10,228 bases of DNA, taken from contig JBDRYB010000041.1 in assembly GCA_039803205.1 (NCBI GenBank), positions 1-10,228 of the forward strand, written 5' to 3'. The notes under the pieces were generated by a model. The model did not search any database and was not told the DNA's origin. It saw only the letters and a program-made list of their open reading frames with translations. The DNA is from a candidate division WOR-3 bacterium. Lineage in GTDB: Bacteria; Hydrothermota; Hydrothermia; JBDRYB01. Below are positions 1 through 10,228 of the stretch, piece after piece. The stretch's first letter is position 1. The number at the start of each line of letters is the position of its first letter. The translations under genes and the position numbers were made by a program.

Positions 1-77
1 GAATGGGTCTGGAAGCCAGGGATTTCCTCACGGAGGCCCTGAGACTGATATTTACAGGTGTGTGCCAATCCTTGCTT

Positions 78-245
78 GATACTTGTGGAGAAAGGGTCAT
101 ATTTTTTCTCCTTTCCCGGCCCTTCCTTCTTGGGGCCGGGGTTATATTTTCATCCCTCAGGGCCTCCCTGGGCCACTACGGCCCCAAGGGTTTGAGAGCC
201 TTGCAGGATAAGGGTTTCAGAGGGGAGGAAAGTGTGAGATCTCAG
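78..245 (+). repeat. Left copy of ~170-bp inverted repeat; probable IS right end (homology may extend left of 78)
   Basis: Matches the reverse complement of 10056-10228 except for 3 substitutions and a 5-nt GCCTT duplication in the right copy. Near-identity stops abruptly after GAAAGTGTGAGATCTCAG. The IS-end call is an inference from the sharp boundary and the TIR-like terminus. Confidence 0.9.
115..150 (+). terminator. Terminator-like hairpin inside the repeat
   Basis: CCCGGCCC (115-122), 10-nt loop, GGGCCGGG (133-140), then GTTATATTTT. The stem is intact in both repeat copies. Confidence 0.5.
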
Positions 246-257
246 AAGATTTGGCCC

Positions 258-286
258 TTGACAGTCCACGCTTTTTCGGTTATAAT
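258..286 (+). promoter_or_regulatory. Consensus sigma70 promoter
   Basis: TTGACA (258-263), 17 nt, TATAAT (281-286), followed by SD AGGAGGTGA before ATG 311. Confidence 0.9.
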
Positions 287-310
287 ATCACCACTAGGAG
301 GTGATGAAGT

Positions 311-1018
311 ATGCTATGTTTTGGTATGCTGGCCCTCCTCCAGATCTCCGATGCCCTTTTTATTAGGGACTGCTGTGAGCCAACAGGCTATTACCAGTGG
401 CTCTTCGGCTGGATAGGCCCATGGGAGGGCAACGGTTGCACGGGAGCAGGCCCCAACCTACGAGGCTACATGTATTGGCCCATCCCCTCCTCGGTTGCCA
501 ACATGAATATCACGGGGGTTTCCCTGAGGCTCGTGACCAACAACTCTGGCTCAACGAGCCTGAATGTCAATAAAGTTGGAGCCTACCAACCCTCTGCCCA
601 GGACTGTGGTGATGGGCCATACACCTCCGGATTTGCTGTTCCCTCTGGGGCGGATGTTGAGTTCTATGTCCCCCTTGGTGGAAGCATAATCTCTGACCTA
701 AAGGCCAAGGCCGGAGGCATGTTCGGCCTTGGCCTGAGCGGAACAGGGGCCGACAAGTTCTTCTACTCCCACTGGGCATGGTATCCTGACGACGCCTGGC
801 TCGTCATCAACTATAACCCTCTTTACGAGGATGTGGGAGGGGGAACCGTTATAACCGATGTCCCTGGCAGGGCATTCCTCTATGATATAACTGGTCGGTG
901 CGTGAAGGATATGGGGGTTCTGGAACCGGGGGCGCACGACCTTTCGGGCTTGGCACTGGAAAGGGGTGTATATATCCTGATGATAGGAGAGAAAGCCTTC
1001 AAGATAATAAGGAGGTGA
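311..1018 (+). CDS. Secreted Cys-rich DNRLRE/CBM96-like protein with T9SS-type C-terminal tail, paralog 1
   Basis: 235-aa ORF with strong SD and short hydrophobic N-terminus. LRGYMYWPIPS..ITGVSLRL and FYS..WLVINY resemble DNRLRE-domain motifs. C-terminal LYDITGRCVK..GVYILMIG..KIIRR. Domain names are from motif recall. Confidence 0.8.
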   Translation: MLCFGMLALLQISDALFIRDCCEPTGYYQWLFGWIGPWEGNGCTGAGPNLRGYMYWPIPSSVANMNITGVSLRLVTNNSGSTSLNVNKVGAYQPSAQDCGDGPYTSGFAVPSGADVEFYVPLGGSIISDLKAKAGGMFGLGLSGTGADKFFYSHWAWYPDDAWLVINYNPLYEDVGGGTVITDVPGRAFLYDITGRCVKDMGVLEPGAHDLSGLALERGVYILMIGEKAFKIIRR

Positions 1019-1022
1019 TGAG

Positions 1023-1703
1023 ATGCTGTTCTTAAGCATAGCGCTTCTCGGTGATGTTACCATAAGCGATTGCTGTGAGCCTACGGGTTATTATCAGAAG
1101 GTCCTGAACAACTGGATAGGCCCATGGGAGGGCGACGGTTGCACGGGAGCAGGCCCCAACCTACGAGGCTACATGTATTGGCCCATCCCTGCTTATATTG
1201 CTGAGAAGCAGATAGATGCGGTTTATCTCAGGATGGTCACCAACACCAGCGCGTCGGTTTCAATGAACATCAACAAGGTTGGTAACTATCCGCCGAGCCC
1301 TCAGGACTGCGCGGATGAGCCATACACCACGGGATACACTCCTCCGTATGGCGCTGATATTGAGTTTCAGGTCCTCCTCGGAGGGAACATAGTGAACGAT
1401 GTGAAGGCAAAGGCAGGGAGCATGTTCGGCCTCGGTATATCCGGGACCGGTTCGGACAAGTTCTTCTACTCCCACTGGGCATTGTATCCCGACGATGCTT
1501 GGCTCATCCTGGTTATCCCGGTTGAGACAGAGGAAACACCCGCCCCTGACGGCTTGGTAAGGGCTGTTCTCTACGACGCCTCGGGGAGGCCGGTTGCTGA
1601 CTACGGGTATGTTTCGGAGGATTTCGTTCCGGAGATGAGGGGCCTCAAAGGCGGGGTCTACATCCTGGTAAGGGGGGAGGAGGCGCTGAAGCTGGTGAAA
1701 TAA
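1023..1703 (+). CDS. Secreted Cys-rich DNRLRE/CBM96-like protein with T9SS-type C-terminal tail, paralog 2
   Basis: 226-aa ORF whose SD AAGGAGGTGA overlaps the upstream stop. Colinear with paralog 1 (DCCEPTGYY, GCTGAGPNLRGYMYWPIP, DKFFYSHW). Tail LYDASGRPV..GVYILVRG..KLVK. Confidence 0.8.
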   Translation: MLFLSIALLGDVTISDCCEPTGYYQKVLNNWIGPWEGDGCTGAGPNLRGYMYWPIPAYIAEKQIDAVYLRMVTNTSASVSMNINKVGNYPPSPQDCADEPYTTGYTPPYGADIEFQVLLGGNIVNDVKAKAGSMFGLGISGTGSDKFFYSHWALYPDDAWLILVIPVETEETPAPDGLVRAVLYDASGRPVADYGYVSEDFVPEMRGLKGGVYILVRGEEALKLVK

Positions 1704-1719
1704 AGGTTTCCTCCGTTAA

Positions 1720-3072
1720 TTATAGTCTCATTATTGCTATGGCTATTCCGAAGTAAATGGCGAGACCTGTTGCATCAACCAGGGTTGTTATCAGGGGGCT
1801 TGAAACCACAGCGGGATCAACTCTCAGCACATATTTGGCGAAAAGCGGAGTAAAAAAGCCCATGAGGTTTGAGGCTATGACCACGGATAGCATGGCTGTT
1901 CCTGCTGTTATGGCTATCCTGATATCAGGAGTTCTGAAAATGCCTATTACGAAAGTGGTGATACCGAGAACGAACCCTATCAGCAAGGCCACGGCTATCT
2001 CCTCAAGGAAGAATCTCATGAACCTACGAACCTGAAACTCGCCCGTCGCTATCCCCCTGACTATGAGGGTGACAGCCTGCGAACCCATGTTGCCGCCGGT
2101 GTCGGCAAGCATCGGAATGAAATACGAAAGGGCCAGAAAAGAGCCGAGAACTGCCTCAAATCTCTGGATTACAATCCCCGGAATGATCCCGAGGATTATG
2201 AGTATCACGAGCCAGGGCGTTCTCCTCCAGGCCCTTCCCCACACATTCAGGCCGAAATAGCGCTCCTCGGGCGCGGCTATTGCCATGAGGCGCTGGAAAT
2301 CCTCGGTTGCCTCAGCTGTCTGAATGTCTATGACATCGTCAGCGGTTATCACGCCAATGAGCTCGCCATCCGCATCCACAACGGGCAATGCCAAGAGGTT
2401 GTATTTTCCCAGCATTCTCGCGGCCTCCTCCGCGGGCTCATCAACCCTCACTGTCGGGACTGGGCTCTCCATTATCTCAGATAGCTTTGTGTCCGGGCGT
2501 GCCTTCAGGAGATCAACGGCTGATATCGTTCCGAGGAGAACGCCGGAATCGTCCGTGACCATTATCTGGTAAAGGGCTTCCTCCTCGGGCTGGGTTTGCC
2601 TTATCCTCTCAAGGAGCTCGCCAACTGTCGCGGATTCTCGCTCCTCAAGGAAATCCGTTGACATTACTCGGCCGGCCGAATCCTCAGGAAAACCGAGGAG
2701 GGTAAGGACCTCCTGTTTGTCCTCCTTGGAGATGAGGGCCATTATCCTCTTGACGACCTGAGGAGGCAGTTCGGAGAAGAGCGCGGCCCGGTCGTCAGGG
2801 TCAAGCTCCTCAACTATGGCACGGGTCTCCTCGCCAGTGAAGTGCTCAAGGAGCTCCTCCGCGAGGTCATGGTCCAGCTCAGAGAAGACCTCTCCAGCTG
2901 TTTCCTTGTCCAACAAGCGGAAGACAACGACCTGTTCTTTTGGGGGGAGGAGGGCGAGAAGCTCAACGATGTCCTGGGGCCAGAGGTAGGAGAGGGCCTT
3001 TTTTACATCGGTGTAGTGCCCCTCGGAGAGGGCCTCCGCGATATCCGGCAATATGAACCTGACAAGGTCCAT
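1720..3072 (-). CDS. mgtE: Magnesium transporter MgtE
   Basis: 450 aa with acidic N-domain, CBS pair (DSAGRVMSTDF; LALPVVD..GVITADDVID), and TM motifs PMLADTGGNMGSQ and DPAVVSSPLITTLVDATG. Confidence 0.97.
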   Translation of the reverse strand: MDLVRFILPDIAEALSEGHYTDVKKALSYLWPQDIVELLALLPPKEQVVVFRLLDKETAGEVFSELDHDLAEELLEHFTGEETRAIVEELDPDDRAALFSELPPQVVKRIMALISKEDKQEVLTLLGFPEDSAGRVMSTDFLEERESATVGELLERIRQTQPEEEALYQIMVTDDSGVLLGTISAVDLLKARPDTKLSEIMESPVPTVRVDEPAEEAARMLGKYNLLALPVVDADGELIGVITADDVIDIQTAEATEDFQRLMAIAAPEERYFGLNVWGRAWRRTPWLVILIILGIIPGIVIQRFEAVLGSFLALSYFIPMLADTGGNMGSQAVTLIVRGIATGEFQVRRFMRFFLEEIAVALLIGFVLGITTFVIGIFRTPDIRIAITAGTAMLSVVIASNLMGFFTPLFAKYVLRVDPAVVSSPLITTLVDATGLAIYFGIAIAIMRL

Positions 3073-3107
3073 CTGAGTTCTCTCCGTCTACTTCGGGGCA
3101 CGATTAA

Positions 3108-3137
3108 ATTATAATGCTGGCGGCTATGCCCGCGCAA
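3108..3137 (-). promoter_or_regulatory. Putative mgtE promoter
   Basis: TTGCGC (3137-3132), 18 nt, TATAAT (3113-3108), 35 nt before the ATG at 3072. Confidence 0.55.
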
Positions 3138-3211
3138 CAATAACCAGCCTATTCGCGCCCAGGCCACTGGTTGAGCTATAATATTCCGGAAACAAAAAGG
3201 GGACAAAAGAT

Positions 3212-3453
3212 ATGTTCACGAAGTATCAGAAAGAGAAGATGACCTGGGGTCAGTTTGAGGCAGAGAGGAGACTTCCAGAGGATCACTTCCTGATGAGGAT
3301 AAACGCCCTCATAGACTTCTCTCCCATAGAGAAGGCTCTGAGCCCGCCAATGTCCACGACACCCATCTGTTTGACCCGCTAATGTTAGACTGGCTCAAGG
3401 AGGTCTATGGGGACAAGGGCTTCTCAGATGAAAGAAGGAGAAGGAAACTCTGA
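3212..3453 (+). pseudogene. Internally deleted, frameshifted IS5-family transposase
   Basis: From ATG 3212: MFTKYQKEKMTWGQFEAERRLPEDHFLMRINALIDFSPIEKAL, an IS5/IS1182-type N-terminus. From 3343 in another frame: PANVHDTHLFDPLMLDWLKEVYGDKGFSDE, matching the PANVHD and DKG(Y/F) DDE-region motifs; stop at 3453. Confidence 0.85.
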
Positions 3454-3492
3454 GAACGAGCAAATGAAAGCCAAAAAGAGACAAAAGGGAAC

Positions 3493-3520
3493 AAAAATGG
3501 GGGCCTCAGACCCCCTTTTT
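3493..3520. terminator. Possible bidirectional terminator
   Basis: AAAAA-T-GGGGG-cctcaga-CCCCC-TTTTT. It lies downstream of both the IS fragment (+) and the beta-propeller genes (-). Confidence 0.45.
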
Positions 3521-3579
3521 AGGTTCAAGTGAGGGTTAGCTGGGCCTGAGAGGAGGCCCAGGGGGGAGGAGGGGAAGCT

Positions 3580-3596
3580 GGGGGGGGGGGGGGGGG
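3580..3596 (+). repeat. G17 homopolymer
   Basis: 17 consecutive G, preceded by GGGGGGAGGAGGGG and the hairpin CTGGGCCT-gagagg-AGGCCCAG (3540-3561). Confidence 0.9.
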
Positions 3597-3674
3597 TTAT
3601 CAGAACTCTCATCTATGTCAAGGAGGAACTCTTTTAGGGAAGCTGTTCTGGCCATGGTCTATCCGGTTTCCGTG

Positions 3675-5201
3675 CTACCTGATCACTGCCCTTGCCCAGA
3701 GGATTTTATCCCCGGCTACTAGTTCCACGAAATAGATGCCAGGATGTAAGGGCAACCCCGCTTGATTGTACAATTTTACCTCATGTTTCCCTGCCTCTAG
3801 GAATCCGTCAATCGGCCTTGCGACCAGGCGGCCTGGGGCATCGTAAAGAAAAAGAGAAACGCTACCAGAATGAGGAAGCAAAAGGATAATTTCTCTACCC
3901 ACAATGAACATATGTGGGCTTTTTTCGGGCACATATTCATTGAGAGGAGTGGAACATATTATGCTATCCCTAAGAAGGGGAGTATTTACGATAAGTTCCA
4001 CATCATTCACTTCTGGTTGAATAACAGCTATTGAGCATGAGGCGCCTTGAAAGACATACGGAGTGTAATTTGCGGGCACTGTACTAAGTGATTCCTGCAA
4101 ACATGTGTTTCCTCCATCATCAACCTTTATAAGCAGATTATCCCCTGATTCAAGGAAGGCTGAAATGCCCGATACCATATAGCCTCCGTCCAAAGTTCGG
4201 ATAAGGGATGAAGGCTTGTTATAACTCTCTCCCAAGGGAATTAACCTAGACCAGAGCAGATTACCAGCATAATCCATGTAAATGAGCACCAGATAGGTAG
4301 TCGGCCAATCGCCAATTGTACCTACGAGAATCAATCCACTGTTAGATACGGCTAGATAATTAAATTCACCCTCTAAGTCCGAAAAGATCTTGCTCCACAC
4401 AAGGTTGCCGTAAAGATCAAATTTTGCCACGAATGGCCTTGGAGGGGAGGTTGATCCTTTGTCAACATAACCGGCCACAACGAGGCTACCATCAGGTGTC
4501 TCCCCTACACAGTTAGCAGAGTTCCAACGGGGGTCTCCTAGGATCTTTGCCCAAAGGAGGTTTAGAGTGGAATCAAACCTGCAGACCATCGCATACCTAT
4601 CATATAGAGATACCCAAACCGCGCCCACGATCGCGAACCCGCAATCGCTCGTTTGTATTGCCCTGAATCCTGCGTCTGAGCCCGGGGGAATTAAAGCCTT
4701 ACTCCACAAGTGGTTACCTGCTGAGTCAAATCTGGAAAGAGCAATATCATACTTATCCGTAGAAGATAGGACCAAGAACCCCTCGTCAAAGGTCTGAGTA
4801 ATGGAGTATGGTTCTCTAATGTCGTCCCCACTAAGCATCTTTGCCCAGGATAGGTTCCCCATAAAATCAAAACTCACCAAGAGGACTCCAGAAAAGCCTC
4901 CGAATTCATAGTGGCATACTGCTATGAACTTCTCCGATGTGCTGATGATTTCCACGGGTTTATCATATCCGGGGCTTCCAAAGGTCTTGGCCCAGAGATA
5001 ATTGCCATACTGATCAACTTTTACCAGTGTTATATCATAATCACCTGCGCCGAATCCGCTGATATACCCAACTGCCCAAAAGCTTCCGTTTGGCGCCTGA
5101 ATAATCCCACTCAGCCCATCATATTGGGTTTTTCTCCCAAAAACGCTGATGAACTGGGATTGACCCGGAAGCGCCATTAAAACGAGGATAAGATGTGCCA
5201 T
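3675..5201 (-). CDS. Secreted beta-propeller repeat protein with T9SS-type C-terminal tail
   Basis: Likely start is ATG 5201 (MAHLILVLMAL), preceded by GGAGGA and following the upstream stop. Repeated (K/R)xDxxGNxLWxK blades. Tail VSLFLYDAPGRLV..PGIYFVEL..VIR. Confidence 0.85.
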   Translation of the reverse strand: MAHLILVLMALPGQSQFISVFGRKTQYDGLSGIIQAPNGSFWAVGYISGFGAGDYDITLVKVDQYGNYLWAKTFGSPGYDKPVEIISTSEKFIAVCHYEFGGFSGVLLVSFDFMGNLSWAKMLSGDDIREPYSITQTFDEGFLVLSSTDKYDIALSRFDSAGNHLWSKALIPPGSDAGFRAIQTSDCGFAIVGAVWVSLYDRYAMVCRFDSTLNLLWAKILGDPRWNSANCVGETPDGSLVVAGYVDKGSTSPPRPFVAKFDLYGNLVWSKIFSDLEGEFNYLAVSNSGLILVGTIGDWPTTYLVLIYMDYAGNLLWSRLIPLGESYNKPSSLIRTLDGGYMVSGISAFLESGDNLLIKVDDGGNTCLQESLSTVPANYTPYVFQGASCSIAVIQPEVNDVELIVNTPLLRDSIICSTPLNEYVPEKSPHMFIVGREIILLLPHSGSVSLFLYDAPGRLVARPIDGFLEAGKHEVKLYNQAGLPLHPGIYFVELVAGDKILWARAVIR

Positions 5202-5202
5202 A

Positions 5203-6744
5203 TTATTTCCTCCCATAAACTAGCATTCTTGCTGTATAGGTTTTTATAGGGATCTTCAGCTCAACGAAATAAAGGCCCGTCTCCAAGTTGGGATTTACGG
5301 TATATTCTCCAGCATCCAGCACCTCATCCACTGGCCTGGCAACGGGCCGACCCAGAGGATCGTAGACAGATAGAACAACATGAGCCGCTGATGCCAAAGA
5401 AAAACGAATGCGGCCACCGTTAACAAAGAAATCAATCCCCTCACATTCTATCTCGTTCACACCCACAAAGCAAACCGTATCAATTGAAGGAACTAATGTT
5501 CCCATGTGGAGGCTTACAGGGTTTGTAGCAAAAGAATTGCGGTAAGTGGATGGGGTGGGTGTGGCGATCATTCTATCACGGGTAGCAGAGTAGTTATAAT
5601 AACCCTCTGAACCTACGCAGGTCTCTGGAGCGGCGTTAAATTTGGTAAGAACCATATCGTAATTTCCAAAACCCATGTTCTCCCCGGAGCCAGCTGCTAC
5701 TAAGCTGCCGGAATCATCAACAAACGAATAGAAATAAACGATGCCAAACGGATAAATTGTCCAATACCTGTAACCGTAAATCCTTTTTACGATCACCTTA
5801 CTCTGGCTGAGCCAGGCGTAGAGATAGGAGGAATCAGATGGAACGATCATCCTTCTCAGATTTTTTGGAACCCAGATGTCCCAGGGGCTAAGACACTGGT
5901 GCCACAAGTATGAACCGTTTTGGCTAAATGCTACCAGGAAAGCGGTGCCACCTAAGCCCTCATCCCAGGCATCGCCTACCACAAGAACTGTGCCATCAGG
6001 GTACTGAACTAGATCGTAACCCTCACTATAAGGTTTGTTGCCATAACTGCCGGGCATCAGAAAGGTCCTTGTCCATTGACGGTTGCCCCCGGAATCAAAA
6101 ATGGATAGCATCATTTCCTCCTTCCCGACCGAGAACCCAATGCTTTTTCCCACAACAGCAAATCCGCCATCTTTGGTCTGTATGAGCGAATTTCCATAGT
6201 CAAAGTAGGCTCCTCCGTGGGTAGTGAACCACTCTCCTTCTCCATTCGGGCCGCATTTGGCAAGAAGTATATCAGAATTTAACACACCCGTAAGGGCAAA
6301 TCCGCCGTCCCGGGTGGGGATCACATCGTTAATGCTGGTATAATAGCCTAATGATACACCTATAACCTTACACCACAAAAGATTCCCGTTCTGATCCAGC
6401 TTGATGGCTAGGATACCAGATGGGACTAGAGCTATGTCTCTTGTTTCCCCTACAACGATAATATCCCCATTAGAAGTTTCAATCACCCCTACTCCATAGT
6501 CAGAGCTGTCGGAACCAAAAAGTCTTGTCCAAAGGTGCTGGCCTGAGGAGCTGAATTTTGAAACCATGATATCGTAGTCGCCCGCCGTGTAACTGTTAGA
6601 ATATCCTGCTACAACAAAGCACCCGTCAGAGGTGCGGGTGATAGACTCGGCAAAATCATTACCAGGCCCGCCGAAAACAAGGACAAACTGACCCTGTGCT
6701 TGGGCCAGCCCAACGAGGCACAACATCATCAAGAGTCCACGCAT
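5203..6744 (-). CDS. Secreted beta-propeller repeat protein with T9SS-type C-terminal tail
   Basis: 513 aa with signal peptide MRGLLMMLCLVGLAQA and SD AAGGAGG. Repeats TxDGGFxxxG and KLDQNGNLLWCK. Tail VYDPLGRPV..GLYFVEL. Confidence 0.88.
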   Translation of the reverse strand: MRGLLMMLCLVGLAQAQGQFVLVFGGPGNDFAESITRTSDGCFVVAGYSNSYTAGDYDIMVSKFSSSGQHLWTRLFGSDSSDYGVGVIETSNGDIIVVGETRDIALVPSGILAIKLDQNGNLLWCKVIGVSLGYYTSINDVIPTRDGGFALTGVLNSDILLAKCGPNGEGEWFTTHGGAYFDYGNSLIQTKDGGFAVVGKSIGFSVGKEEMMLSIFDSGGNRQWTRTFLMPGSYGNKPYSEGYDLVQYPDGTVLVVGDAWDEGLGGTAFLVAFSQNGSYLWHQCLSPWDIWVPKNLRRMIVPSDSSYLYAWLSQSKVIVKRIYGYRYWTIYPFGIVYFYSFVDDSGSLVAAGSGENMGFGNYDMVLTKFNAAPETCVGSEGYYNYSATRDRMIATPTPSTYRNSFATNPVSLHMGTLVPSIDTVCFVGVNEIECEGIDFFVNGGRIRFSLASAAHVVLSVYDPLGRPVARPVDEVLDAGEYTVNPNLETGLYFVELKIPIKTYTARMLVYGRK

Positions 6745-6767
6745 TTCAATCCTCCTTATCCTGGAAA

Positions 6768-6796
6768 ATTATAGGGCCCGGGCCGGGGAGTTTCAA
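6768..6796 (-). promoter_or_regulatory. sigma70 promoter for the beta-propeller genes
   Basis: TTGAAA (6796-6791), 17 nt, TATAAT (6773-6768). Confidence 0.85.
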
Positions 6797-6808
6797 CAAC
6801 GCGAACCT

Positions 6809-6890
6809 CTCACCCGACCCACTTTCAACCCCATCTAAGCCCTTATCCGGCAACAACTTAGGCTGAAATGCTTGTGCCCCAAGGACTTAG
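6809..6890 (-). repeat. Diverged third copy of the terminal repeat end, with two IHF-like palindromic boxes
   Basis: 6853-6809 (-) aligns ungapped to 201-245 (+) at 30/45 nt by hand count. Boxes are CTAAG..CAACAACTTAG (6835-6861) and CTGAA..CAAGGACTTAG (6863-6890), each with CAA-N4-TTA. Confidence 0.65.
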
Positions 6891-7219
6891 CTGAGCTAAA
6901 ATGCGGAATTCTCTGATTTTATTATAAAGAGGCGGATTGATTGTTTTTGGTTCCGGAGGCCAAAAATGGTGGGAAAGCGGTATTAGAATACCAGTAATAA
7001 TACACTGGTCAGTTCGGGCTATCGTTGATGCAGTGAAGGTTATGGGGCTTTATGCTGGCTTGCGATTACGGCATCAGAACGTTCACATCCCTGAAAAAGT
7101 GATGAGCTCCCTGGGAAGACAATTCCTCTGTGGTGGTTTTATCAATGGCCCCCCTGAGAAACCTAAAATATACTCAAGAACTTCCCGGAGGTGATTCGTG
7201 GTCCATGTTGTCCCTTCTC

Positions 7220-7522
7220 TTACATGTTCAGAAGGTCATCTATGGTAACCTTATCCTGGGTCAAAATTTCCTCTACACTGAGCTCAGGTCTCAGACCCAT
7301 GCTGCGACAGAGCTTCCAATATTTTTCCCTCGTTATCTCAACCAACTTCAGATCAATATCATCGGGCTTGATACTGAACACATAAAACCTATTAAGGGTT
7401 CTGAAGATACCCCTGGCCGATCCGTCATCATAAAAAAGCATCACGCTTCTCAGAGGAACGATTCCTTTGATTCTGAGAAGGGATTTTATCCTATCCTGAG
7501 TTATTTTCTTTTTACATCCCAT
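7220..7522 (-). CDS. Hypothetical protein (100 aa)
   Basis: AT-rich ORF with plausible composition that overlaps the upstream ORF by 11 nt. No recognisable motif. Confidence 0.55.
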   Translation of the reverse strand: MGCKKKITQDRIKSLLRIKGIVPLRSVMLFYDDGSARGIFRTLNRFYVFSIKPDDIDLKLVEITREKYWKLCRSMGLRPELSVEEILTQDKVTIDDLLNM

Positions 7523-7706
7523 ATTCAGAGGATTCAGAATAAGGTTCTTGCAAAAGCCGTCCTCCTTTTATGACATACCCGTTTCCCCCTTCCGGGGGAT
7601 CGAAAACCTTCCATCCTTCTATGGTTTCAAGGGCATCAGACCTGTTCAAAAGCTCGGTGAGTTCCGATAAAATCCTCCCGTTTCCCTTTTTCGCTTTCAT
7701 GCGCAT
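7512..7706 (-). CDS. Hypothetical protein (64 aa)
   Basis: Short ORF with GGAG upstream, co-oriented with rnpB and the 100-aa ORF. No recognisable motif. Confidence 0.4.
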   Translation of the reverse strand: MRMKAKKGNGRILSELTELLNRSDALETIEGWKVFDPPEGGNGYVIKGGRLLQEPYSESSEYGM

Positions 7707-7804
7707 AGTTTAACGCTCCAGCTCAAGCTCGTTCAACTTTTCTCATGGCCTCATCCCTTATCCCCAAAGCTCGCGCCCAGGCCATAGCGAAAAACAGCAG
7801 GCTC

Positions 7805-8154
7805 TCCGGGGAGGCCCGTAAGCCGGATTCTGTTTCTTGCGACCATCCATCTTGGCGCGCGGTCTCCCGAGCGCTCGTGCGGCCTACCCGGGGGTTCGTG
7901 GGGCCGGGCCAGCCCCTTATCCCCCCTTATTTGGCCTTGCTCCGGGCGGGGGTTGCCAGCGCAGGGGTTGCCCCTCTGCCTGGTGGGCTCTTACCCCACC
8001 GTTTCACCCTTGCCCTTTCGGGCGGTTTGGTTTCTGTGGCCCTTTCCGTGTCACGGAGGTCTCCCTCCGCGACCCCGGGCGTTACCCGGCGCCCTGCCCT
8101 TCGGAGTCCGGACTTTCCTCTGGCGTAAACCAGCGGCCGCCCAGCCTCCCCGGA
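7805..8154 (-). ncRNA. rnpB: RNase P RNA, bacterial class A
   Basis: The minus strand has GAGGAAAGTCCGGACTCC, GGAAAGGGCCACAGAAA, AGGGTGAAACGGTGGGGTAAGAGCCCACC and AACAGAATCCGGCTTA. P1 is TCCGGGGAGGC (8154-8144) paired with GCCTCCCCGGA (7815-7805). Confidence 0.98.
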
Positions 8155-8164
8155 TGAGCTCTAT

Positions 8165-8193
8165 TTTATAAGGGGTTTCGCATGGAGGATCAA
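8165..8193 (-). promoter_or_regulatory. rnpB promoter
   Basis: TTGATC (8193-8188), 17 nt, TATAAA (8170-8165), about 10 nt before P1. Confidence 0.75.
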
Positions 8194-8342
8194 GAACCGA
8201 GCCTCTTCTCCGCCACCACCATAAGGGGCTCAAATCCTGCTTTTTTCCAAAACCCCTCAGCTATTTTGTTTCTTACTGCAAAATTCAGTGCTATGGATGC
8301 CGCATCCTCGGGCCTCGTTCGCCTTATCGCTAGACCCTTCAT
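8190..8342 (-). pseudogene. Internally deleted GNAT acetyltransferase (50-aa in-frame ORF, not in the supplied track)
   Basis: MKGLAIRRTRPEDAASIALNFAVRNKIAEGFWKKAGFEPLMVVAEKRLGS*. The GNAT N-terminal IRxxxPED motif is joined directly to the C-terminal NxxAxxFWxKxGF motif. The ATG overlaps the upstream TGA (ATGA). Confidence 0.8.
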
Positions 8343-9079
8343 CTCTCAATCCCCGGCCTTCTTGAGATGAGGCGTTTGACCTGTTCCCTGGTCTCTAGCA
8401 GGTTCATCCTCAGCGTCTCAAGGATCTCGGCTATCTCCCCGAGCCTTCCCGGCGCCCTCATGGTCACAGGCCCCTCAAGGTCCCCGAAAGCGATGCGCTT
8501 TGCCTCTTTGGCGAGGCGCCTTGCTGGGAAAACAACCATGCGCAGGAATGTCGCTAGGCCCAGGATCACAACCAAAATCGCGATGCCCAGATTGATCCAG
8601 ATTAAGACAGGCGCGGATGTCCTGGCACGAATGACATCCTGCATGGTATTTTCCAAAAGAAGACTCATTTCCTCCTGTCTTATGGCCGCGCGCATGACAT
8701 ATATCTCCTTTGTCTTCGGCTCTTGCACTGAAAACGCGGAATCCGCGAGGGCGAGGTATTCCTGCCAATTTCGGGCGAATTTTGCCCTGTCGTTAGAGCT
8801 CATTGGGTTGCCTCCCTCGGAAAGCGAGCTGGCCAGACCAGTTGCCATGTCCTTCTCCACCCCGAACCGCTCAATCCAAACCCGCTCGCCGAGGATCTGG
8901 TATTTCTCAAGGAATGTCTGCATCCTGCTGAGCGACCTCTGGAATCGGCTGAGAAGAGCTACTCCCTCCATGTTTCTTTTTGATCTGGCCACCTCATATG
9001 CTATGACATGCCCTTCCCAGACGACCATGGCGCCCAGAGCCAGGTAACAGAACATCAGCAAACCGAAAACCCACCTCAT
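8339..9079 (-). CDS. Two-TM sensor-like membrane protein with C-terminal HAMP domain and no output domain
   Basis: TM1 at the N-terminus, helical extracytoplasmic region, TM2 (LIWINLGIAILVVILGLATFL), then HAMP PARRLAKEAKRIAFGDL..LGEIAEILETLRMNL and a short tail. ATGA overlap with the upstream gene. Confidence 0.88.
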   Translation of the reverse strand: MRWVFGLLMFCYLALGAMVVWEGHVIAYEVARSKRNMEGVALLSRFQRSLSRMQTFLEKYQILGERVWIERFGVEKDMATGLASSLSEGGNPMSSNDRAKFARNWQEYLALADSAFSVQEPKTKEIYVMRAAIRQEEMSLLLENTMQDVIRARTSAPVLIWINLGIAILVVILGLATFLRMVVFPARRLAKEAKRIAFGDLEGPVTMRAPGRLGEIAEILETLRMNLLETREQVKRLISRRPGIER

Positions 9080-10005
9080 CTGAGAACAACCCCCGCATCG
9101 TGCGCCCTGTCTGTTATCGCGGAGAGAACTTCTCTCATCACGCCCGGATCATCCGAAAGATAAGCCTTTGCTCCCGCGTAAAGTGCCCTGTAAAACGGGG
9201 CCATGATCTCATCCGGGTCAACGCCAGGGTCAACCCTGAGCTTCCCCTCCCTTACCTCCACGAGCCCCAGAAATGGGTTGAGAAACGGGCACTCAGAGGA
9301 GCCAACCATCATGGATTCCCTCACGACGAGCTCAAAACCCGCGGCGCCGCTGTGGGCCTTGTGGACCTTCTGATAAACCTCTGAGTAGGTTTCCTCCATC
9401 ATCTTCACCTTCATCTCCCTGGAGAATATCACGCTTTCGGCTTCCAGGGCCCCCGCTGTATTCTGGATGCTCACCCTGCAATCCGTTATCGCCTGTGCCG
9501 CTTTGGCCATGGTCCCTGCCGCACCATCCACGAATACCCCGGCTATCTCACCGAACGAGAGAAATACAACTACCTCGCTCTTCCCTTGGCCCCAGATGAA
9601 TCCAGTAAAACCAGCGGCTTGGAGCTTCTTTACCATCTCGGGCAGGTTCAGCAATTCGCCCGGCAGGTCTTCCGATATGGTCTTCGCCGCGAAATAACCT
9701 ATGATGTGATGGACGAGCTCAGGGTGAACCTCATAGGCATCCATGGTCCCTCTTTCCATTTTCAGAACCCTTTCCAAGATTTCCATCACGGATGAAGGCG
9801 ATTCTAGGCGCCTGCCTATCTCGCCCTCAATGCCTGCACCGACCGCAAAGCCGTTGTCGAGAAAGAGGTAATACCTGCTTCCGCCGGCTGTTATCCGGAC
9901 GAAGCCAGTTCTCTTGCTCTCCTCAAGCCCAGCTATCTCTCTCTGAAGGTTTTTATGACTTACCGATACACCTTCTCTTATCACCGGAAACCTTATCCTG
10001 AACAT
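9076..10005 (-). CDS. Tandem DUF4388/PATAN-like domain protein
   Basis: Two repeats of the L..L....TG..I......F..G....pattern (LEESKRTGFVRIT..YLFLDNGFAVGA; LQAAGFTGFIW..VFLSFGEIAGVF) plus a C-terminal domain containing PFLNPF. Family assignment is from motif recall. Confidence 0.7.
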   Translation of the reverse strand: MFRIRFPVIREGVSVSHKNLQREIAGLEESKRTGFVRITAGGSRYYLFLDNGFAVGAGIEGEIGRRLESPSSVMEILERVLKMERGTMDAYEVHPELVHHIIGYFAAKTISEDLPGELLNLPEMVKKLQAAGFTGFIWGQGKSEVVVFLSFGEIAGVFVDGAAGTMAKAAQAITDCRVSIQNTAGALEAESVIFSREMKVKMMEETYSEVYQKVHKAHSGAAGFELVVRESMMVGSSECPFLNPFLGLVEVREGKLRVDPGVDPDEIMAPFYRALYAGAKAYLSDDPGVMREVLSAITDRAHDAGVVLR

Positions 10006-10012
10006 GAAGAAG

Positions 10013-10043
10013 ATAATATAATGGTAAACGCGTGGAAGATCAA
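10013..10043 (-). promoter_or_regulatory. sigma70 promoter for the PATAN-HAMP-GNAT operon
   Basis: TTGATC (10043-10038), 17 nt, TATATT (10020-10015), with overlapping TATTAT (10018-10013). Confidence 0.75.
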
Positions 10044-10055
10044 GGCCTCGCGTTC

Positions 10056-10228
10056 CTGAGATCTCACACTTTCCTCCCCTCTGAAACCCTTATCCTGCAA
10101 GGCAAGGCTCTCAAACCCTTGGGGCCGTAGTGGCCCAGGGAGGCCCTGATGGATGAAAATATAATCCCGGCCCCAAGGAGGAAGGGCCGGGAAAGGAGAA
10201 AAAATATGACCCTTTCTCCACAAGTATC
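10056..10228 (-). repeat. Right copy of the ~170-bp inverted repeat, truncated by the window end
   Basis: Reverse complement of 78-245 with 3 substitutions and a GCCTT duplication. Confidence 0.9.

Follow-up and report, generated by a model that had tools for sequence, protein, structure and literature searches.

The window analysed here, 10,228 nt in length, is the entire contig C41 of the source genome (G000), with copies of a repeat designated family A at both of its ends (copies 1 and 2) and a third repeat end, copy 3, between them. The features of the three loci are as follows.

71..245, minus strand: copy 1, a family-A left end reading inward from 245, with the transposase ATG at 100-98
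114..141, plus strand: GC-rich hairpin and T-rich tail inside this left end, preceding the transposase ribosome-binding site (opposite strand)
233..245, minus strand: 13-bp core of the family-A left terminal inverted repeat, matched by right ends elsewhere in the genome
246..254, plus strand: 9-bp target duplication of copy 1, with an exact partner beside a family-A right end (G000:C27:24765)
255..257, plus strand: invariant 3-nt gap between the copy 1 target duplication and the -35 box
258..286, plus strand: sigma70-type promoter targeted by copy 1, predicted from consensus only; ORF at 311
6768..6796, minus strand: promoter targeted by copy 3, TTGAAA-17-TATAAT; ORF 5203-6744
6800..6808, minus strand: presumed 9-bp target of copy 3, placed by position
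6809..7053, plus strand: copy 3, a family-B left end plus decayed 5' part, from a sister IS10-like family
10015..10043, minus strand: promoter targeted by copy 2, TTGATC-17-TATATT; ORF 9076-10005
10047..10055, minus strand: presumed 9-bp target of copy 2
10056..10228, plus strand: copy 2, a family-A left end running off the contig, with its inverted repeat (10056-10068), a TATAAT (10160-10165), a hairpin (10165-10192) and the transposase ATG (10206)

A sequence-only reading of this contig had placed a repeat end 12 nt from a -35 box at each of the three loci, and all of its coordinates hold. Copy 1 ends at 245 and is followed by 12 nt (246-257), TTGACA (258-263), 17 nt and TATAAT (281-286), a 12/12 match to the consensus. 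On the minus strand, copy 2 ends at 10056 and is followed by 12 nt, TTGATC (10043-10038), 17 nt and TATATT (10020-10015), while copy 3 ends at 6809 and is followed by 12 nt, TTGAAA (6796-6791), 17 nt and TATAAT (6773-6768).

Copies 1 and 2, separated by 3 substitutions and a single 5-nt indel across 173 columns, both represent the left end of family A, an IS10-like element of the IS4 family. Copy 1 is joined at ~70 to sequence unique within the assembly and is therefore truncated or interrupted; judging by its sequence, the hairpin at 114..141 would be terminator-like towards the host promoter. The TATAAT of copy 2 is likely the -10 box of the transposase gene. The presumed target of copy 2 has no exact partner among the 152 ends compared, its sole match being a one-mismatch match to an end that is exactly partnered elsewhere, and the presumed target of copy 3 has no partner among the same 152 ends. 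Copy 3 had been taken for a diverged copy of the same repeat; it is instead the left end of the sister IS10-like family B, which has ~10 copies in the genome and transposase fragments of its own, only a terminal motif and weak similarity being common to A and B. No transposase match remains in 6701-7800, and no right end of copy 3 lies within the window.

The G000 assembly contains no intact family-A copy, and copies in this genome carry many internal deletions. The full element is represented by an intact relative, L055, which has a transposase and both ends: it is 1,264 bp long, is bounded by a 14-bp perfect inverted repeat with CTGA ends, and holds a single ORF without frameshift (P0002). 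Its left end is 72% identical to that of copy 2 over 151 columns, and P0002 is 67% identical to the C-terminal part encoded by the source genome itself (P0001). The catalytic triad was tested on P0002, P0001 covering the second D and the E: residues D89, D164 and E267 are 75 and 103 apart, which fits the IS4 arrangement D(60-110)D(100-150)E, and across 43 alignment rows the two aspartates are invariant and E267 nearly so. The Y(2)R(3)E(6)K motif corresponds to Y260-R263-E267-K274 and is also present in the family A and B fragments of G000. P0002 matches PF01609 with 60 bits (cut-off 23). Searching solved structures by sequence gave no real match, but the structure model of the transposase (pLDDT 84.6) finds its best fold match in Tn5 transposase (1muh, Foldseek E 7.6e-11), so that the protein is predicted to be a Tn5-fold DDE/YREK transposase; the Tn5/IS50 enzyme (PDB 1muh, 1mm8) shares this predicted fold with a TM score of 0.65 over the query, at 15% identity.

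In the parts of De Palmenaer et al. (2008, PMC2266710) consulted, the IS10 subgroup of the IS4 family is characterised by a length of 1,200-1,350 bp, CT ends, YREK, a 9-bp duplication and a single ORF, and L055 agrees with it in size and in its CT ends, as do the elements examined here in their most frequent duplication length, 9 bp. NF033591 is the best NCBIfam match of P0002, at 99.7 bits, below the family cut-off of 152; the phased relatives L060 (166.8) and L063 (159.9) score above this cut-off and L057 (116.4) below it. In a tree built without IS10 itself, and with weakly supported deep branches, P0002 falls outside the proteobacterial IS10-like clade (support 1.0). We file the element as IS4 family, IS10-like, for which cut-and-paste transposition would be expected. 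The termini had previously been described as IS4/IS701/IS1634-like: the IS4 part stands, and the remainder does not, since IS701, ISH3 and IS1634 combine an incomplete YREK with a 4-6-bp duplication, whereas a full YREK and 9-bp duplications are found here, and the profile scores for these three (15-40 bits) are far below their cut-offs. The view that the transposase is not Mutator-like is borne out, as the A and B proteins have no match to NF033529 (UPF0236); an ISLre2 identity is likewise rejected, a separate G000 element being the one that does match this profile.

Target duplications, which in the IS4 family span roughly one turn of the helix (PMC2266710), are abundant: there are 10 exact 9-mer pairs among the family A, B, D and E ends, and 20 among all 152 ends against 0.08 expected by shuffling. 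Among complete elements 9 bp is the modal length, with 8 and 10 also occurring. The repeats are therefore insertion sequence ends, as had been proposed, tied to a DDE_Tnp_1 transposase with full YREK, to a second inverted end and to 9-bp target duplications. This bears directly on the alternative in which they are a duplicated upstream-activation module, static and held in phase with the promoter. A fixed helical phasing to the -35 box is what an activator site would show, and family-A left ends are well conserved; the transposase, second end and duplications nevertheless contradict it, as do promoters occupied differently in related species. In G001 and G002 no module lies at the rpmA promoter, so that relatives hold an element-free allele with the promoter retained, and another promoter has different element ends in three species: upstream of the orthologue of ORF 9076-10005, G001 has a different IS end at 12 nt and G002 a degenerate one at 13-14 nt. 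One promoter site has thus been used repeatedly by sister families, and we regard the static module as refuted as the origin of the repeats. No clean empty site was found for copy 1. In run X3, a contig of 2,566 nt matches window positions 253-468 and G000:C27:23641-24704, with 1,286 other letters between them, and no match to the A ends is among the matches listed; it therefore represents an allele lacking A rather than a simple pre-insertion site.

Other copies in the genome keep their spacing to the -35 box, which supports the promoter-targeting reading. Eleven of 13 family-A left ends lie at 12 nt from a -35 box, one lies at 13 and one has none, whereas only 2/15 right ends lie at 11-12 (12/13 vs 2/15, Fisher p 7e-5); the exception without a promoter is the A copy C25:13505. 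TTG[AC] followed by a 5-of-6 TATAAT is found at offset 12 in 10/13 family-A left ends against 6.3e-4 per intergenic position, a binomial p of ~3e-30 that assumes one offset, chosen after looking. Over the A, B, D and E ends, TTG[AC] occurs at offset 12 in 24/64 and in at most 4 at any other offset. Family C is weakly phased, with TTGA at 9-11 in 8/25 listed ends, few of them with a -10 box. Promoters in these counts are consensus calls, not mapped starts. The promoter is not carried by the element, since the flanking sequences are unrelated and promoters of the same grammar occur at 472 IS-free intergenic sites.

In five related genomes, whose kinship makes the counts non-independent, 83/99 end-to-TTGAC matches have a gap of 12; these phased matches amount to roughly half of the 170 ends in those genomes, the share predicted if almost every insertion points a single end at a promoter. 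Ends drawn from 30 genomes gave 17/34 at 12, and same-genus relatives 9/26 at 12 and one at 13, with 11/26 scoring under threshold and 5 peaking elsewhere. In family A it is the left end that faces the promoter; its relatives use either end.

The spacing of 12 nt, proposed to be invariant, does recur, but it is not itself the constant. Duplications of 7, 8, 9, 10 and 11 bp correspond to -35 distances of 10, 11, 12, 13 and 14 nt: the real constant is the 3 nt between the target duplication and the -35 hexamer, independent of the -35/-10 spacer. Among 14 complete elements, all 10 that bear duplications obey this rule (8 to 11 nt, 9 to 12 eight times, and 10 to 13 on both sides). Further cases are L057 (10 to 13), L083 (11 to 14) and a G183 pair (8 to 11 on both sides), and of the non-ISLre2 duplication pairs of G000, 11/12 have TTG[AC] at duplication plus 3; the G002 pair L024/L036, without a -35 box at 12, is an exception. 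The same data weigh on the possibility that insertion is untargeted and that selection and later deletions leave only promoter-abutting copies. The genome is ~89% coding, its copies are rich in internal deletions and 4/14 complete elements have no duplications, all of which would suit such a history. Selection would give a lower bound rather than one value, however, and the complete copies that still have their duplications, and with them the mark of the original site, follow without exception a rule in which distance shifts with duplication length. Selection alone is therefore very improbable, indeed close to refuted.

The register is anchored at the -35 box and not at the -10 box, since the 12-nt distance is kept with spacers of 16, 17 and 18. 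A full promoter is needed: a strict -10 box stands behind 20/30 phased TTG[AC] words, against 8.2% of intergenic TTG[AC] (p 2.5e-15). The transposase might itself read promoter DNA, either the TTGAC word or an adjoining bend, with no polymerase involved; the register does track the -35 hexamer exactly, and read-out of DNA exists in the group, given the recurring palindromic targets of proteobacterial IS10-like elements. We consider this unlikely. The additional -10 box, 16-18 nt further, would fall outside the target footprint in Tn5 geometry; the targeted hexamers vary (TTGATC, TTGACA, TTGAAA, TTGCAA, TTGCGT) and the spacer varies with the host, being 17-18 in G000 and mostly 16 in relatives; and recognition of a flanking word by a symmetric dimer would not depend on a promoter. 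The 9-bp target itself has no strong consensus.

We rather favour, as fairly probable, a model in which the transposase-DNA complex captures its target while butted against promoter-bound RNA polymerase-sigma70, which would explain insertions at 3 nt plus the duplication from the -35 box. The complex would abut the polymerase at sigma region 4 during target capture; the edge of the holoenzyme would fix the promoter-side strand attack, and the far-side attack would vary, which would set the length of the duplication at anything from 7 to 11 bp. Insertion leaves the -35 and -10 boxes whole, so that the targeted gene would stay expressed, although upstream elements would be displaced; intact boxes suggest in this sense a safe harbour, with the promoter still working after insertion. 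Most copies later decay to short deletion derivatives, and those without duplications likely arose when copies recombined with one another or through neighbouring-end events.

Phasing is found mainly in one phylum, where it spans several IS4 subgroups and ISLre2. A host feature of this phylum distinct from any fit between transposase and polymerase, such as an adaptor or a nucleoid protein leaving promoter-upstream DNA open, could thus funnel many transposases to the promoter edge, each with its own footprint. Within G000, IS10-like (12), IS50-like (~10), family I (15) and ISLre2-like ends (peak at 16-17) are all phased, and a distant IS4 group of the same phylum has gaps of 11-14 in 6/6 matches. 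Using a scoring matrix derived from 98 G000 sites, which may miss promoters of other phyla, 0/79 ends of proteobacterial IS10-like elements and 0/47 from another phylum were phased. Against such a feature, IS1380-like ends of G000 show no phasing (0/12), nor do the IS4-like elements L066, L070, L071 and L077 of the phylum at the ends seen; single phased cases occur in other lineages (L057, L120, L159), one of them in a Brocadiaceae genome, although scans of the genomes available for them, and of 251 and 151 genomes from the phyla concerned, gave no further copies; and open DNA alone would not fix a single base position. A host feature is accordingly an unlikely explanation. The phased elements are not supported as one clade, deep nodes being weak. 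Tested proteobacterial IS10-like elements, which are unphased, have, ahead of the EPW motif, a basic insertion of 24 residues that is absent from phased elements, but a short loop at this position also occurs in unphased elements, and no sequence signature separates the two.

Within the literature searched, promoter homing is in print only for Mutator-like elements: TnGBS ICEs, the ISLre2 family (p-MULT 3) and the ISKra4 group (p-MULT 4) target promoters at 15-17 nt, according to the passages of Guerillot et al. (2014, PMC3942029) consulted. As described there, ISLre2/TnGBS insertion resembles that of family A in being oriented and at a fixed distance upstream of housekeeping promoters, but it relies on a Mutator-like transposase, against an IS4/Tn5-fold enzyme and 12 nt here, and proceeds through circular intermediates, against the cut-and-paste expected here. 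In G000 the gap between duplication and -35 box is 7-8 nt for ISLre2-like ends versus 3 nt for IS10-like ones; the same passages do not relate distance to duplication length, and no tests of the RNA polymerase link they propose were found in the literature searched. Yeast Ty3, cited in that paper, is likewise positioned by the initiation machinery, at RNA polymerase III promoters, with the gene spared; it is a eukaryotic retroelement tethered by TFIIIB/TFIIIC, while the partner here is a presumed one. For the IS10 subgroup the parts of PMC2266710 consulted describe no promoter targeting (the word "promoter" is absent from the main text), and their Table 1 gives subgroup IS50 an 8-9-bp duplication. 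No report of IS4-family promoter phasing was found in the papers searched, which were largely open-access.

Here promoter homing is seen in the Tn5/Tn10 structural family, which has in vitro systems and structures. Tn5 itself inserts nearly at random. More tentatively, docking on the sigma70 holoenzyme could be an ancient and widespread way of choosing targets among Tn5-fold transposases: several IS4 subgroups (IS10-like, IS50-like and one that is unclassified) would share one geometry, with the promoter-side nick fixed 3 bp from the -35 box and the duplication stretching over 7-11 bp, and the well-studied proteobacterial members would have lost docking or swapped it for sequence read-out. If so, these would be one-protein integrases marking promoters to the base while leaving the core promoter whole. 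With intact elements this compact (L055, L060), a precision of one base and a simple rule, promoter finding can be tested directly with purified parts, and a tool for inserting DNA beside promoters without gene breakage may follow. For uncultured lineages, phased ends also serve as ready-made markers of where promoters lie.

At all three loci of the window (the entire contig C41 of the 2.3-Mb, 50-contig assembly G000), a repeat end lies 12 nt from a -35 hexamer with a -10 box 17 nt beyond, exactly as the sequence-only reading had described. That reading had also taken the third end for a diverged copy of a single repeat family, which BLAST against the assembly contradicts: positions 71-245 and 10056-10228 belong to one family (A), and 6809 onward to another (B). 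The window further contains:

311-1018 and 1023-1703, + strand: tandem pair of related ORFs with signal-peptide-like N-termini, without Pfam hit
1720-3072, - strand: MgtE magnesium transporter
3212-3379, + strand: short ORF without Pfam hit, single copy in the assembly; contig depth raised over 3153-3344
3520-3616: small repeat common to C31:18791 and C4:12651, adjoining a hairpin of terminator type and a long stretch of Gs
3675-5216 and 5203-6744, - strand: tandem pair of related ORFs with signal-peptide-like N-termini, without Pfam hit
7803-8152, - strand: RNase P class A RNA gene (RF00010, 241 bits)

Of the three targeted promoters, two drive the tandem ORF pairs; the short ORF presumably resembles the N-terminus of an IS1182/IS5-type transposase. 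Among the -35 boxes of this genome TTGATC is very common, and in a number of unrelated promoters, both IS-bearing and IS-free, a GTCCACGC-like word directly follows the -35 (e.g. window 264-271).

Promoters were scored at 45 offsets outward from each end, using a matrix derived from 98 intergenic sites of G000 that are free of IS; this matrix reaches a score of 8 at 0.2% of intergenic positions. Other genomic copies had been predicted to keep the spacing, and they do: 11 of the 13 family-A left ends with a flank peak at 12, one peaks at 13 and one lacks a promoter, versus 2/15 right ends peaking at 11-12 (Fisher p 7e-5). A matrix-free strict test at offset 12 was passed by 10/13 left ends. When the ends of A, B and D/E (a third sister family) are pooled, 24 of 64 have TTG[AC] at offset 12 and at most 4 have it at any other single offset, a few of the rows being nested or degenerate ends. 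As controls, IS1380-like ends in G000 are unphased (0/12), and, among 18 rows for one end of an ISLre2-like element, peaks lie at 16 (8), 17 (3) and 18 (1), the published range for ISLre2. The promoter phasing is real. At least four kinds of phased IS ends occur in G000, namely IS10-like at 12, IS50-like (family C) at about 10, unclassified family I at 15 (3/6) and ISLre2-like at 16-17; the IS1380-like ends flank TTGAA/TTCAA.

The distance stays at 12 with -35/-10 spacers of 16, 17 and 18, and the anchor is therefore the -35 box and not the -10 box. A strict -10 stands behind 20 of 30 phased TTG[AC] words, compared with 8.2% of intergenic TTG[AC], so that targeting needs the whole promoter.

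The repeat ends had been suspected to belong to a transposable element, and a DDE_Tnp_1/YREK transposase, a second inverted end and 9-bp duplications were indeed recovered. Read inward, a family-A copy starts with a short leader and an ATG, continues with parts of a single ORF (the internal deletions differ between copies) and closes with a second end that has a 13-bp inverted repeat in common with the first; no intact family-A copy was found in the G000 assembly. The A and B ORF pieces carry a Y-x2-R-x3-E-x6-K motif, their DDE_Tnp_1 hits being weak. A protein search yielded the genome's own C-terminal part (P0001, 215 aa) and a full-length relative (P0002, 370 aa). The latter is the product of L055, a 1,264-bp element, intact and bounded by perfect 14-bp inverted repeats, on a metagenome contig; over 151 columns, the L055 left end and window copy 2 share 72% identity. 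The best NCBIfam match of P0002, NF033591 (IS4 family; 99.7 bits), is below the cut-off of 152, which the phased relatives L060 and L063 exceed. The predicted transposase structure (pLDDT 84.6) best matches Tn5 transposase, and size, CT ends, YREK and 9-bp duplication agree with the IS10 subgroup as tabulated in part of PMC2266710 (Table 1). Since they fall outside the well-supported proteobacterial clade in a tree of 63 loci and 25 proteins (L168 and L087, lacking an ORF hit, were left out), the elements are named IS4 family, IS10-like. A hairpin inside the A left end (window 114-141 and 10165-10192) is terminator-like in the host-promoter direction and, on the transposase strand, has a purine-rich Shine-Dalgarno-like loop directly 5' of the start codon.

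Exact reverse-complement 9-mer pairs numbered 20 among 152 ends, versus 0.08 by shuffling; ten link the two ISLre2-like ends and ten link A, B, D and E ends. Copy 1 is matched by the right end at C27:24765; the sequence flanking that end contains, at 15 nt, a promoter that faces the other way. Different families are joined in three pairs. At G000:C24:360-370 (L001), only 9 bp lie between an A and a B end; sister families therefore use the same target again. Such stacking of two families, apart by the 9-bp duplication alone, also occurs at L036. Two pairs between like ends are a sign of rearrangement or misjoined repeats.

The distance to the -35 equals the duplication length plus 3. Of 20 regions fetched, 14 had both ends and 10 of those a duplication, and all ten obey this rule (8 bp with 11 nt, 9 with 12 eight times, 10 with 13). 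Between back-to-back promoters, it holds on both flanks of L219 (G131:C109; 10 and 13) and of L223/L226 (G183; 8 and 11), as if duplication length fitted the space between two -35 boxes. L057 (10, 13) and L083 (11, 14) follow it as well. Among G000 non-ISLre2 pairs, 11/12 have TTG[AC] at duplication plus 3; the 11 include duplications of 8 bp (distance 11) and 7 bp (distance 10), and the 7-bp case belongs to family C and lacks a good -10. The twelfth is the A/B stack. One pair in the related genome G002, without a -35 at 12, is an exception. At five loci (L002 at G000:C30:1933-2530, L060, L073, L075 and L213), each end is spaced 12 nt from a -35 and no target duplication is present, which recombination, neighbouring-end transposition or misassembly could explain; part of PMC11708052 lists recombination and adjacent deletion among causes of absent duplications.

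Empty alleles retaining the promoter, a proposed check, were found at rpmA, where A sits at 12 nt in G000 and the conserved promoter is element-free in the related genomes G001 and G002. At the orthologue of the window-10043 promoter, G001 has an end of another element at 12 nt, and G002 has a degenerate end at 13-14 nt. Metagenome runs of hot springs, from one study, contain the stretch. A run X3 contig joins the copy-1 and C27 neighbourhoods, with no A ends among the matches listed, and is not a clean empty site for copy 1 because 1,286 other letters intervene.

We regard the elements as very probably promoter-targeted insertion sequences. Fixed promoter-side cut, variable far-side cut, -35 anchor and -10 need are what would be expected of a transpososome abutting promoter-bound holoenzyme on its upstream side, and such abutment seems rather likely; the fit may reflect either specific contact or, on bent DNA, simple steric abutment. 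The duplicated 9 bp presumably lie near -47 to -39 by promoter numbering. Class II activators occupy approximately this region and contact sigma region 4. Direct read-out of promoter DNA by the transposase is an unlikely alternative.

Among 26 ends of the A relative in two same-genus genomes, 9 peak at 12, 1 at 13 and 5 elsewhere, 11 being below threshold. A profile search matched 33 of 272 genomes of the phylum, related elements sharing the spacing (29 loci inspected); one end motif is present in 31/272 (control hits 0). In five motif-bearing genomes, picked because copies are numerous there (170 ends), 99 matches have the motif followed by TTGAC within 30 nt, 83 of them with a gap of 12; among 34 ends from 30 genomes, the first TTGAC stands at 12 in 17 and at another offset in 4, and 13 have none. 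A distant IS4 group in the phylum is also phased (6/6 matches at 11-14). A genome-wide scan took in 78 loci, 70 of them analysed (13 without inverted repeat): proteobacterial ends are unphased (0/79), as are Pirellulaceae and Gemmatales copies, and the 31 remaining ends include L159 at 12 and a Brocadiaceae element at 11. In another phylum 0/47 ends (29 loci) are phased, by automatic end calls, some wrong, and a host-specific matrix. In the tree, no supported clade unites the phased elements, and no sequence signature common to them was found. A phylum-specific host factor that guides the elements is an unlikely explanation.

In PMC3942029, TnGBS, ISLre2 and the ISKra4 group insert at 15-17 nt, a behaviour termed atypical, and contact with RNA polymerase is proposed for their targeting. 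ISLre2/TnGBS work in a similar mode, but the present elements are not members; what is new is a sharper distance rule, in a transposase family open to biochemistry. Sections of PMC2266710 do not mention promoters for the IS4 family, part of PMC9208149 places IS generally close to promoters, and a partial literature search found no report of promoter phasing in IS4 elements.

Two further repeats were observed in G000. In the chimera L006 (C13:41975-42322), a left end of family A is fused to the right half of IS50-like family C. Family J ends in a common 25-nt motif and is unphased to promoters at the boundary used; its copies are:

G000:C48:5794, C10:8584, C27:11401, C17:757, C4:95429, C24:15499 and C9:52559: family J copies
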